Virus record (IMG/VR): IMGVR_UViG_2687453449_000002
Length of the DNA stretch: 15,276 nt
Reading direction: 5' to 3' (one strand)
Origin: a virus
Taxonomy: Duplodnaviria; Heunggongvirae; Uroviricota; Caudoviricetes
Shown: positions 1,462 to 8,097 of the stretch, piece after piece
Numbering within the stretch: position 1 is the stretch's first letter
How the letters are laid out: every line of letters begins with the position of its first letter
The notes under the pieces: generated by a model
What the model saw: the letters and a program-made list of their open reading frames with translations, nothing else
Told to the model about the DNA's origin: nothing
Databases searched by the model: none
Translations under genes and position numbers: made by a program

Positions 1462-1519
1462 AAAAACGGCGGCAGAGCAGTCACGGAGTAAAACTGATAC
1501 CGCCAAACGTCACCAGAAA
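1462..1519 (-). ncRNA. dicF: DicF small regulatory RNA (ftsZ-targeting), with its intrinsic terminator
   Basis: Minus-strand sequence tttctggtgacgtttggcggtatcagttttactccgtgactgctctgccgccgttttt matches the remembered DicF sRNA, including a GC-rich 3' hairpin plus T-run; located between the upstream ORFs and dicB. Confidence 0.85.
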
Positions 1520-5553: not shown

Positions 5554-6240
5554 ATGAACCTCATAAACACATTTATGACTGTTGCTGATTTCAAACGCCC
5601 CAAATTGGAGCTCCCAAACGGGGCAAAAAAACTATTACTGCACTCTTGCTGTGCTCCATGTTCCGGTGAAGTGATGGAGGCGCTTCAGGCCTCGGGAATC
5701 GACTACACCATCTTTTTCTACAACCCGAACATTCATCCTCAGAAAGAGTATTTAATTCGTAAGGATGAGAATATTCGCTTTGCTAAACAACACGGCGTGC
5801 CATTTATTGATGCTGATTACGACACAGACAACTGGTTTGAGCGAGCCAAAGGAATGGAATGGGAGCCTGAACGAGGGATCCGTTGTACCATGTGTTTTGA
5901 CATGCGTTTTGAGCGGACTGCGCTGTATGCCGCTGAAAATGGTTTCAGTGTGATCAGTAGCTCACTGGGCATTTCACGCTGGAAAAATATGCAGCAGGTT
6001 AACGACTGTGGACGGCGAGCCGTCGCGTATTATCCGGGCATGGTGTACTGGGATTATAACTGGCGAAAGCAGGGCGGCTCTTCCCGCATGATTGAAATCA
6101 GCAAGCGCGAACAATTCTATCAGCAGGAATATTGTGGCTGCGTGTATTCACTGCGCGATACCAATCTACACCGCAAATCTCAGGGACGCCCTCTAATCAA
6201 AATTGGTCAACTCCACTACGGTAAAGAAGGCCAGGAATGA
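5554..6240 (+). CDS. queH: QueH-family (DUF208) epoxyqueuosine reductase-like protein; start uncertain (GTG 5461, ATG 5554 or ATG 5575)
   Basis: Hallmark [13 protein letters not shown] near the N-terminus and EYCGCVYS near the C-terminus, consistent with the cysteine motifs of DUF208/QueH as remembered; about 220-260 aa; no clear Shine-Dalgarno at any candidate start. Confidence 0.65.
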
Positions 6241-6320
6241 TTTTATATTATGCCAACGGAGCGTAGCAGTGTTTCTATATATAGTACGCCTACCTTAATT
6301 TTCAAATAATCATGATTAAT

Positions 6321-6353
6321 GAGCAGGTCATCAGTGCAAGCAATGACCTGCTC
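6321..6353 (+). terminator. Hairpin downstream of the queH-like gene (possible terminator or processing site)
   Basis: 11-bp perfect stem gagcaggtcat / atgacctgctc with an 11-nt loop, followed by a weak T-containing tail (atcttgttg). Confidence 0.4.
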
Positions 6354-6687
6354 ATCTTGTTGAAATTAGAGGAAATCTTGCAGCCATGATATGGCTTAAA
6401 ATAACGTTTGATTATTTTACCTGCTGTTTGTCCCTGGTTTAAAGTCGGTTGTCTGATTTGATTACGCGCAACTGACGCTTACGTATTGAAGTAACGAGCA
6501 CGAAGACACATATTTATCAGTGCCTGTATACGTCAAGAGCAGGAGATTTATGTGCTGGTTCTCAAATGCACGCTGGCTATTGTGGCTGTAATGGCAATTT
6601 ATTGTCTTGTTATTGTTCTTATGGATCACCTTTCTGATTGATTTCATATTGGAGAGGTAACGGTAGTTAAGTAGAATGGCTGCGGGT

Positions 6688-6852
6688 GCTTGAGGCTATC
6701 TGCCTCGGGCATGAACACCAACGGCAGATAGAGAAAAGCCCCAGTTAACATTACGCGTCCTGCAAGACGCTTAACATTAATCTGAGGCCAATTTCATGCT
6801 AGACACATGTAGGTTAGCCTCTTACGTGCCGAAAGGCAAGGAGAAGCAGGCT
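6688..6852 (+). promoter_or_regulatory. hok mRNA 5' leader with tac/ucb-like elements and an in-frame mok-like upstream start (6796)
   Basis: Sequence ggtgcttgaggctatctgcctc...ggcagatagagaaaagcccc...agcctcttac...gcaaggagaag resembles the conserved structured leader of hok-family mRNAs. Confidence 0.5.
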
Positions 6853-7008
6853 ATGAAGCAGCAAAAGGCGATGTTAATCGCCCTGATCGTCATCTGTTTA
6901 ACCGTCATAGTGACGGCACTGGTAACGAGGAAAGACCTCTGCGAGGTACGAATCCGAACCGGCCAGACGGAGGTCGCTGTCTTCACAGCTTACGAACCTG
7001 AGGAGTAA
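6853..7008 (+). CDS. hokD: Hok-family type I toxin (51 aa), HokD/RelF-like
   Basis: MKQQKAMLIALIVICLTVIVTALVTRKDLCEVRIRTGQTEVAVFTAYEPEE: single transmembrane helix and conserved Hok C-terminus; AAGGAGAAG Shine-Dalgarno upstream. Confidence 0.9.
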   Translation: MKQQKAMLIALIVICLTVIVTALVTRKDLCEVRIRTGQTEVAVFTAYEPEE

Positions 7009-7076
7009 GAGACCCGGCGAGGGAGAAATCCCTCGCCACCTCTGATGTGGCAGGCATCCTCAACGCACTCGCACTT

Positions 7077-7100
7077 AACCCGCTTCGGCGGGTTTTTGTT
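7077..7100 (+). terminator. Rho-independent terminator at the hok mRNA 3' end
   Basis: Stem aacccgc / gcgggtt with ttcg loop, followed by tttttgtttttatttt; preceded by a fold-back-like segment (catcctcaacgcac) partly complementary to the 5' leader. Confidence 0.8.
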
Positions 7101-7224
7101 TTTATTTTCAACGCGTTTGAAGTTCTGGACGGTGCCGGAATAGAATCAAAAATACTTAAGTAGCGCGCAGGGATAAGAGGGATGGTCCCTTAAAGGGGAG
7201 AGCTAATTATCCGGAAGGATTCTG

Positions 7225-7476
7225 ATGATGAACATCGAAGAACTGCGTAAAAATTTTTGTGAAGATGGCCTCTATGCTGTGTGCGTTGAAAATGGAAATC
7301 TTGTTAGTCATTACCGCATTATGTGTTTGCGAAAGAATGGGGCTGCGTTAATTAATTTTGTGGATGGTCGAGTGACAGACGGATTTATCTTGCGCGAAGG
7401 TGAGTTTGTCACTTCATTACAGGCACTGAAAGAGATCGGAATAAAAGCAGGCTTTTCAGCTTTTGCAGAAGAATAA
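7225..7476 (+). CDS. rem: Rem-like small prophage protein (83 aa)
   Basis: MMNIEELRKNFCEDGLYAVCVENGNLVSHYRIMCLRKNGAALINFVDG...; GGAAGGA Shine-Dalgarno; lies directly downstream of hok as rem does relative to hokD in Qin. Confidence 0.7.
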   Translation: MMNIEELRKNFCEDGLYAVCVENGNLVSHYRIMCLRKNGAALINFVDGRVTDGFILREGEFVTSLQALKEIGIKAGFSAFAEE

Positions 7477-7821: not shown

Positions 7822-8097
7822 CGTGCGGGTATTACTTCGACCTGTTCTGGTATGGCTTACAGCCGTGTGTCGACCTTCTCCGGGGATTATCTCCGCGTAA
7901 CTGACAACAAGGGGAAAACGCACGATGTGCTGACCGGAAGTGATGACGGTCGCCACAGCAACACGTCTCTGGCGTGGGGGGCTGGCGTGCAGTTTAACCC
8001 GACCGAATCCGTGGCCATTGACCTTGCTTATGAAGGTTCCGGCAGTGGTGACTGGCGCACTGACGGTTTCATCGTGGGTGTCGGTTATAAATTCTGA
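7822..8097 (+). pseudogene. lom: lom (Ail/Lom outer-membrane protein) 3' fragment lacking the N-terminal half
   Basis: Encodes ...SLAWGAGVQFNPTESVAIDLAYEGSGSGDWRTDGFIVGVGYKF, matching the C-terminal beta-strands of Lom/Ail/PagC; no signal peptide or N-terminal barrel portion upstream. Confidence 0.7.

Follow-up and report, generated by a model that had tools for sequence, protein, structure and literature searches.

The reference system for hok/sok modules is the plasmid-borne hok/sok (parB) locus of R1, whose elements follow one another in the order tac, 5' hairpin, ucb, dcb with the mok Shine-Dalgarno sequence, mok, Sok target, hok Shine-Dalgarno sequence, hok, fbi and terminator. In R1 the mok start codon lies 58 nt upstream of that of hok and opens the +1 frame, and on the antisense strand a promoter (TTGCGC, 17 nt, TATCCT) is followed after 6 nt by the 5' end of Sok, GGACUAGACAU; this RNA is ~66 nt long. 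In Escherichia coli K-12, the hokC/mokC/sokC (gef) locus has an mRNA 5' end reading GGGUGCUUGAGG and a mok frame that continues into hok in phase and terminates at its stop codon; sokC is annotated as starting 9 nt inside mokC, the position equivalent to the start of Sok in R1. This K-12 locus has lost its fbi, because IS186 interrupts it just after hok. Another K-12 member of the family, hokD (relF), belongs to prophage Qin, where it comes third in the relBEF operon, and its product has been reported to be toxic when overexpressed (bioRxiv 10.1101/2025.08.07.668861). The closest described system is hokW-sokW of Sakai prophage 5 (Sp5), an Stx2 phage of E. coli O157:H7. Takada et al. 2021 (PMC8621323) have shown that HokW, which is 44% identical to R1 Hok, is toxic and is neutralised by sokW expressed from its own promoter, that mutation of the sokW -10 element releases this toxicity, that the hokW and sokW RNAs are both detectable, that sokW is complementary to the hokW leader over 71 nt, and that the system depends on RNase III and Hfq.

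The window analysed here, that is the whole stretch of 15,276 nucleotides, very probably contains at 6650-7099 a structurally complete hok/mok/sok type I toxin-antitoxin module, carried by a Qin-like lambdoid prophage in a genome of the E. coli B lineage; as one and the same reading, the locus would be the unrearranged form of the K-12 hokD (relF) gene and a close allele of hokW-sokW. Every element of such a module is present in the sequence, with conservation in related loci (Table 1), and no IS element, frameshift or truncation was found inside 6650-7099. A preliminary description of this DNA had proposed an apparently complete hok-type locus, and all the features it listed are found at or near the positions it gave. 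The start of its transcript region, given as 6688, has to be adjusted: it is most likely at 6684, preceded by a promoter-like site at 6650-6677. The inferred end is at 7099. The locus is of an ordinary, already known kind and in effect is a known locus, the hokD allele with its ancestral leader. Nothing in the module is new, as its completeness is the commoner state in E. coli and the module has previously been annotated and studied as hokW/mokW/sokW.

Table 1. Features of the hok/mok/sok module, with positions in the window.
Feature	Position	Strand	Basis
hok promoter-like site: TGGAGA (6650-6655), 16-nt spacer, TAGAAT (6672-6677)	6650-6677	+	consensus scan
Full-length hok mRNA, ~416 nt (inferred)	6684-7099	+	start inferred; 3' end from terminator scan
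tac (5' GGGUGCUUGAGG); pairs with fbi in full-length RNA, with ucb in active form	6684-6695	+	
Local 5' hairpin (GUGCUUGAGGC / GCCUCGGGCAU)	6686-6712	+	folds of leader alone and of 3'-truncated RNA
ucb (AAAAGCCCCA); pairs with dcb/mok Shine-Dalgarno when closed, with tac when active	6734-6743	+	
Extended leader hairpin; opposite strand is the Sok stem	6744-6781	+	alignments, folds
dcb and mok Shine-Dalgarno, CUGAGGC (GAGG 6784-6787)	6782-6788	+	paired with 6738-6743 in closed fold
mok-like reading frame, 70 codons, N-terminally extended Hok	6796-7008	+	open reading frame list; in frame with hok, common stop
Loop CUAGACA of predicted Sok-target hairpin (stem 6784-6798/6806-6821)	6799-6805	+	Rfam consensus structure, constrained fold
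hok Shine-Dalgarno AAGGAG	6838-6843	+	read from sequence; nearly invariant in 26 loci; K-12 homology begins here
hok (hokD allele), 51-aa membrane toxin, Hok/Gef family	6853-7008	+	Pfam, K-12 identity, RefSeq
TACG at Tyr47	6991-6994	+	site homologous to reported TadA A-to-I (Tyr to Cys) site of hokC/D/E
Conserved 3'-UTR hairpin GGCGAGGGA-GAAA-UCCCUCGCC	7016-7037	+	folds; covariation at columns 340-347/359-366
fbi (CCUCAACGCACUC), fold-back partner of tac	7058-7070	+	folds, duplexes, covariation
Intrinsic terminator AACCCGC-UUCG-GCGGGUU, then U run	7077-7099 (hairpin 7077-7094)	+	terminator scan
Sok promoter: -35 TTGCCT (6839-6834), 17-nt spacer, -10 TAACCT (6816-6811)	6811-6839	-	homology
Sok-like antisense RNA, ~71-77 nt, predicted	6728-6804 (5' end 6804; 3' end ~6728, approximate)	-	homology

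From the hok -10 element to fbi, the locus is ~97% identical to hokW-sokW of Sp5; the comparison was made with Stx2 phage I (L059), onto which all primers of PMC8621323 map exactly. The two loci have the same Sok promoter region and show no difference over the first 111 nt of the leader; they also have in common an in-frame mok, a 51-aa Hok, the extended leader hairpin and a place in the nin region of a lambdoid prophage. They differ by six substitutions in the area of the mok start and of the 5' tail of Sok, in the C-terminus of Hok (VFTAYEPEE in the window and VFVDYESEK in HokW), in the -35 element of the hok promoter, in the terminator after fbi, and in that the prophage of the window is defective. 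The extent of the homology with Sp5, from ~6663 to just past fbi, delimits the mobile unit. With K-12 hokC the locus shares the 5' end and the in-frame mok, and the tail, the hairpin and the CUUUUCUCUAU 3' end of its Sok are as in K-12 SokC, whereas hokC lacks an 18-nt extension of the leader hairpin and has a Sok promoter with TTGACC and a different -10. This 18-nt insertion, absent from both hokC and R1, is common to the hokD/hokW/Kluyvera subgroup. The set of elements and their order are those of R1, as are the geometry of the Sok promoter and the position of the Sok start relative to mok, although the R1 leader aligns in short conserved blocks only, its mok is in another frame and its Sok is shorter.

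The module is flanked by queH (5575-6240) and rem (7225-7476), in a nin-type region, and the Qin-like lambdoid prophage also carries dicF, dicB, ydfD, dicC and ydaT. When the whole window was searched against Rfam, two matches exceeded their gathering scores; one is described below, and the second, on the minus strand at 1467-1518, is DicF. The host prophage is defective: it contains several pseudogenes and deletions, one of them of 5 kb, and its tail and integrase genes are truncated. In the viable phages HannyBb and mEp460, copies with 99% identity are found at the equivalent place, and Stx phages carry copies with 94% identity. The segment 5166-6526, absent from BL21(DE3), was considered as a possible IS element upstream of hok and rejected, as it is ordinary prophage DNA: it consists of a methyltransferase remnant together with queH, and E. 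coli B has it whereas in BL21 it is deleted.

The relationship with K-12 hokD is one of identity downstream and replacement upstream. The hok coding DNA is identical to that of K-12 hokD, the 3' UTR, fbi and terminator are nearly so (two substitutions), and rem lies downstream in both. The homology begins only at ~6839, 14 nt before the hok ATG, and what stands upstream of that point in K-12 is relE; K-12 hokD is therefore without the promoter, tac, ucb, mok, Sok target and sok gene, all of which the window has, uninterrupted. The preliminary description had suggested that this locus may be more intact than the hokD/relF copy, and the comparison bears this out. The opposite reading, in which the window holds a truncated remnant of the hokD/relF type and the resemblance of its leader to other loci is due to chance, has on its side a RefSeq annotation that consists of the hokD CDS only, and we found nothing else in its favour. 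It has a negligible probability in our estimation, given that the leader match to Rfam has an E value of 3.8e-26, that relE is absent, and that the homology to full-length loci spans the promoter -10 to fbi. The window has a full leader and no relBE, unlike the K-12 arrangement in which relE directly precedes a hokD that has no leader, mok or sok.

This uninterrupted form is also widespread. The leader-hok junction of the window (6770-6910) is found at a coverage of at least 80% in 4034 of 5426 complete E. coli genomes, a count that includes some lower-identity paralogous hok loci, and the relE-hokD junction of K-12 in 1167 of the 5426. The complete form is thus the common one, and the K-12 textbook copy is a truncated exception. 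The segment 6600-7200 is 100% identical to the genomes of E. coli B, BL21, REL606 and C, where only a 'hokD' CDS is annotated.

The toxin itself belongs to the Hok/Gef family. The 51-aa frame noticed in the preliminary description corresponds to the open reading frame 6853-7008, and its product matches Pfam PF01848 (HOK_GEF) at 82.9 bits, the cutoff being 22. The NCBIfam Hok models gave scores below their cutoffs for this 51-aa protein, and the Pfam match is the decisive one. The toxin is identical to K-12 HokD, and RefSeq labels it HokD in the B and BL21 genomes. The TACG motif at Tyr47 is invariant in the 26 loci compared.

Both ends of the sense transcript can be predicted. The covariance-model search proposed in the preliminary description returned Rfam RF01794 'sok' at 6684-6858 on the plus strand, with 115.3 bits (gathering score 59), an E value of 3.8e-26 and the full model (1-157) covered. 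Despite its name, RF01794 is a model of the hok leader on the sense strand, with the hok AUG at the end of its consensus. We place the transcription start at 6684 on the basis of the start of the Rfam model and of the GGGTGCTTGAGG 5' end found in 25 of the 28 related loci listed. The hok -10 element followed by a 6-nt gap and a G start reproduces the geometry of K-12 hokC (TATAAT) and R1 (TATGAT). The -35 element is weak; Sp5 hokW, whose homology starts at ~6663, keeps the -10 and not the -35. The conserved 5' motifs pointed out earlier are all there, namely gcttgaggc (6688-6696), gcctc (6702-6706), ggcagatagag (6723-6733), agcccc (6737-6742) and agcctcttac (6816-6825). At the other end, a single terminator-like site was found in the scanned region 6400-7300, the hairpin 7077-7094 followed by a T run, which is the strong terminator of the preliminary description. 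A match to Rfam isrK at 7017-7098 reaches 25 bits against a gathering score of 50 and was rejected as homology, since it reflects a generic hairpin followed by a terminator.

The preliminary description had seen a fold-back-like segment in the 3' region and had suggested structure prediction as a check. The minimum-energy fold of 6684-7098 has -169.3 kcal/mol (z = -6.8; none of 100 shuffled sequences as stable), and in it 6684-6695 pairs with 7058-7070, joining the 5' and 3' ends as tac and fbi do in hok mRNAs. In this closed fold, 6738-6743 is paired with 6783-6788, so that the mok Shine-Dalgarno sequence would be sequestered by ucb-dcb. Conservation was then assessed in 53 loci encoding relatives of the toxin, fetched with one genome per species. 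In most of them the unit is whole, starting with the 5' end and reaching ~50 nt beyond the stop codon. All intact relatives give tac duplexes, and in nearly all intact copies the best 3'-UTR partner of the first 13-14 nt lies 47-52 nt after the stop codon.

Applied to 26 non-identical loci, RNAalifold found tac-fbi and ucb-dcb again, along with several internal helices, and 17 pairs were changed on both sides. Taken together, the 17 pairs of the tac-fbi and ucb-dcb helices are formed in 97.5% of cells across the 26 loci, compared with 35-48% after a shift of the 3' partners by 1-3 columns; the tac-fbi helix alone reaches 98.6%, with a GC to AU compensatory change. Compensatory cells in the two helices number 23, against 6.8 ± 3.1 in shuffles, and three pairs show compensatory changes. 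For ucb-dcb these are alignment columns 61/101 and 63/99, each with compensatory changes in nine sequences. In the pairing of the 5' end with the 3' UTR, the Kluyvera group shows the two-sided change GAGG/CCUC to GAGA/UCUC. The counts of pairing, of the slid control and of compensatory changes across the 26 loci show that the fold-back is real and under selection. The fold-back segment noticed earlier is thus part of the minimum-energy fold, conserved and covarying. One pair is weakened in the window: T7069 in fbi, a C-to-T change, gives a G.U pair that is unique to this locus, the other 25 having G-C.

Folded without constraint, the 3'-truncated RNA 6684-7057 prefers the local 5' hairpin over tac-ucb; when tac-ucb is enforced, the structure lies 0.7 kcal/mol above the minimum and the target hairpin 6784-6821 forms. 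The refolding step as proposed here rests on homology and on this near-isoenergetic alternative. The local 5' hairpin is the counterpart of the metastable hairpin of the nascent R1 hok mRNA, and its role is deduced from what is established for R1. The CUAG of the target loop would fit the YUNR U-turn motif of the R1 literature, and the loop CUAGACA as a whole is complementary to the 5'-terminal bases of the Sok-like RNA.

The mok frame starts with an ATG at 6796, 57 nt upstream of the hok ATG and in the same frame, has its own Shine-Dalgarno sequence (GAGG 6784-6787) and runs over the hok start to the common stop codon, as the preliminary description had noted. That GAGG is invariant in the 26 loci, and the mok ATG is kept in 25 of them, the remaining one, a relative with a +1 offset (58 nt), having ATA in place of the start codon. 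The offset between the two ATGs is 57 nt (frame 0) in 13 of the 26 relatives; it is 58 nt (frame +1) in eight loci and in the one with the ATA start, giving 55-69 codons of unrelated sequence, and 56 nt (frame +2) in five, where 19 codons end at the hok start. As the offset varies over frames 0, +1 and +2, the peptide encoded upstream of hok is not conserved; the conserved property is that a translated frame leads into the region of hok initiation, in agreement with the accepted role of mok in translational coupling. The contrast with R1 drawn in the preliminary description holds, since an R1-type mok ATG 58 nt upstream of hok gives the +1 frame. An in-frame mok is still nothing unusual, with mokC and hokC sharing a stop codon in K-12 and all three frames occurring among close relatives.

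The same observations bear on whether the true gene could be the single 70-aa frame 6796-7008, its internal hok start being unused and mok having no function of its own. This frame is indeed open throughout and in frame with hok, phage HannyBb carries it as an annotated 213-nt CDS for a 70-aa 'MokW-like' protein, and the Pfam match covers residues 25-66 of the 70-aa translation. The hok ATG and its AAGGAG are, however, invariant or nearly so, the upstream frame of close relatives is +1 (68-69 codons of unrelated sequence) or +2 (19 codons, ending at the hok start), so that the extension is not a conserved protein, and K-12 hokD shares only 14 nt upstream of the ATG. A single 70-aa gene is very improbable on this evidence. 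A single-base indel in AAGG(T)CAAGG toggles the relatives between a fusion (frame 0), a long overlap (+1) and a stop-restart arrangement (+2), and the same indel shifts the -35 and spacer of the Sok promoter from TTGACC/18 to TTGCCT/17. Because one indel alters both the mok frame and the Sok promoter, it could be an evolutionary switch by which the form of the toxin and the strength of the antitoxin promoter are adjusted at the same time; that this is so and that the 70-aa Mok-Hok fusion is a second, functionally distinct toxin isoform, differing for instance in membrane insertion or potency, is as a joint proposal speculative and improbable.

On the antisense strand, an own Sok promoter had been expected but not confidently located in the preliminary description, which had suggested searching the minus strand for it. 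A generic sigma-70 consensus scan of the minus strand reported no Sok promoter, because the -10 TAACCT matches the consensus at only 3 of 6 positions. Homology and the published primers do identify one, TTGCCT-17-TAACCT: TAACCT is followed after 6 nt by the Sok 5' end GUCUAGCAUG at 6804, the spacing found in R1, and the location of this 5' end follows from homology with both R1 Sok and the annotated K-12 sokC. The promoter is identical to the sokW promoter of Sp5, which was defined by mutation in PMC8621323; there, the 'pro-less' primer YO-421 changes exactly TAACCT into GAGCCG, and the hokW probe YO-597 matches 6812-6841 of the window exactly. The position of the promoter is kept in the 26 loci, and five hokD-type as well as thirteen Kluyvera-/Erwinia-type loci keep this position together with bases T1, A2 and T6 of the -10. 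The RNA is predicted to have a single-stranded 5' tail of 15 nt, followed by a long hairpin with imperfect pairing and by a CUUUUCUCUAU U-rich tail, the architecture of R1 Sok and K-12 SokC. At the sequence level, an antisense Sok gene with its own promoter thus appears to overlap the mok start. The minus strand had been correctly anticipated for it; the range of 6780-6860 proposed earlier takes in only the promoter (6811-6839) and the first 25 nt of the RNA. A literature search on 'sokD' returned nothing relevant.

The best-supported account of how the module would work is the mechanism of R1 hok/sok and Sp5 hokW-sokW, transferred by homology. The weak promoter would produce a stable ~416-nt mRNA from 6684, closed at full length by pairing of tac (6684-6695) with fbi (7058-7070), with ucb-dcb sequestering the mok Shine-Dalgarno sequence; in this state the RNA would be neither translated nor bound by Sok. 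Slow 3' trimming would remove fbi, after which the 5' end would pair with ucb and the target hairpin would form around the mok start. Ribosomes starting from mok (6796) would then pass through the hok Shine-Dalgarno sequence and start codon and allow Hok synthesis and, because mok is in frame here, they would also produce the 70-aa extended Hok. The short, unstable antisense RNA, made constitutively from TTGCCT-17-TAACCT and extending from 6804 to ~6728, would contact the target loop through its 5' tail, blocking mok translation and leading to RNase III cleavage. If the supply of Sok stops, on loss of the element, block of transcription or prophage induction, Sok would decay first, Hok would be made and the inner membrane damaged. 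We infer transcription, processing, coupling and killing in the B-lineage strain by analogy with these systems.

The locus could be structurally complete and yet physiologically silent, a single copy in a defective prophage never freeing enough Hok. Besides the weak hok -35 and the state of the prophage, other chromosomal hok loci have been reported to be likewise inactive: the intact chromosomal loci hokA, hokB and hokC are reported to give neither post-segregational killing nor activation by rifampicin (Pedersen and Gerdes 1999, as summarised elsewhere), so structural completeness does not guarantee activity. Tyr47 may moreover need low-level A-to-I editing to provide a periplasmic cysteine, and ~6% editing has been reported for K-12 hokD (PMC12214031). 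The fold preference of the truncated RNA, the unique T7069 and the inactivity of other chromosomal hok loci in killing assays all weigh against activity. Yet in a lysogen of Sp5 one copy of the near-identical hokW-sokW shows activity (PMC8621323), a single chromosomal copy of R1 hok is lethal without Sok (PMC9841398), and the compensatory changes in the pairing elements, together with persistence in viable phages, argue for selection. A silent locus is therefore possible but unlikely.

The main role of the module might also be a phage function, either faster lysis and release on induction, which has been shown for hokW-sokW, or the abortion of infection by other phages, rather than addiction. 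In Sp5, sokW RNA is lost after mitomycin C and HokW is produced in a RecA-dependent manner, and half as many phages are released without the locus (PMC8621323). A release function cannot operate in the present strain, because its prophage is defective (truncated tail and integrase genes, 5-kb deletion). We regard such a role as a fair-sized possibility, though on the unlikely side; it concerns what the module is for and is compatible with the same molecular mechanism.

The significance of these results lies little beyond annotation, and no open question becomes newly testable, since hokW-sokW, which is near-identical, has been analysed in detail before. In RefSeq the hokD CDS is the only feature marked; the Sok-like RNA, the frame of mok and the elements of the mRNA are without annotation. 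For RNA-seq or engineering in E. coli B and BL21, a potentially active hok/sok module is to be expected in the Qin-like prophage. For most E. coli, the laboratory workhorses B, BL21 and C among them, the K-12-centred view of hokD as a gene without regulatory elements does not hold.

The window carries a full-model match to DicF on its minus strand, and dicB and ydfD are annotated close to the position of this sRNA in B genomes; together these genes mark the element as a Qin-type prophage. Comparison with BL21(DE3) and E. coli B revealed two deletions. The segment 5166-6526, which comprises a methyltransferase remnant and queH, is absent from BL21(DE3), while the window itself lacks the 5,014 bp that follow position 7852 in E. 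coli B and that hold a DUF968 pseudogene, the Q antiterminator, a lipocalin gene, IS3 and a tail-tip remnant, the junction 7852/7853 showing a 4-bp overlap. The source is therefore a B-lineage relative carrying its own deletion. Between queH and the hok promoter, about 400 bp (6241-6650) are free of annotation, and contain two short overlapping reading frames. In BL21, a deletion has fused a DUF977 gene with a portion of these 400 bp.

Features of the prophage and of its hok locus
Feature	Position	Strand	Remarks
DicF antisense sRNA	1467-1518	-	Rfam RF00039, 72.5 bits, full model
AGGAG	6541-6545		followed by ATG at 6550; 13 codons, Trp-rich
Hydrophobic frame, GTG start, 29 codons	6552-6641		overlaps the 13-codon frame from ATG 6550
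18-nt insertion lengthening the leader hairpin and the Sok stem	6750-6775		relative to hokC and R1
TACG motif, Tyr47 codon TAC (A at 6992)	6991-6994		invariant in 26 loci

The leader hairpin of the hok mRNA is longer in the window than in K-12 hokC and plasmid R1, which lack the 18-nt extension. Both the hokD/hokW group and the Kluyvera group share this insertion, whose stem stays paired despite sequence changes (e.g. GCGUC/GACGC and ACGUC/GACGU). The Sok-like antisense RNA thus reaches about 77 nt with the insertion, versus 59 nt without it.

At the other end of the transcript, fbi, the 3' fold-back partner of the 5' element tac, carries a T at position 7069 (GCACTC), where a C is found in all 25 other aligned loci, in K-12 and in Sp5 (Sakai prophage 5). 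As a result, the tac-fbi duplex has a G.U in place of one G-C pair, and its energy is -18.5 versus -21.5 kcal/mol. Some other copies are decayed: in that of E. coli ECMA0423 (L008) the 5' end is mutated (GACTGCATGTGGC) and an fbi partner is missing, that of Shigella flexneri (L050) has a frameshifted hok, and that of E. coli ECDA1023 (L018) has lost fbi 3' of hokC, which resembles the IS186 arrangement of K-12. The hok 3'-UTR hairpin and terminator are also spanned by a sub-threshold Rfam match to isrK, an sRNA of the Salmonella Gifsy-1 prophage (7017-7098, plus strand). It scores 25.2 bits for a gathering score of 50, and what aligns is a pair of generic hairpins; homology is therefore improbable.

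TadA A-to-I editing has been reported to recode Tyr to Cys in hokC/D/E mRNAs, K-12 hokD being edited at about 6% (PMC12214031). The TACG motif at Tyr47 corresponds to this reported site. HokD as encoded in the genome is without this periplasmic cysteine.

Finally, a one-base indel, AAGG(T)CAAGG (window 6834-6839, columns 155-160 of alignment A3), splits the aligned relatives into those with mok in frame 0 and those with mok in frame +1. In the Sok promoter, this indel also converts TTGACC followed by a spacer of 18 nt into TTGCCT followed by one of 17 nt. A single base thus affects both the antitoxin promoter and the frame of toxin coupling.
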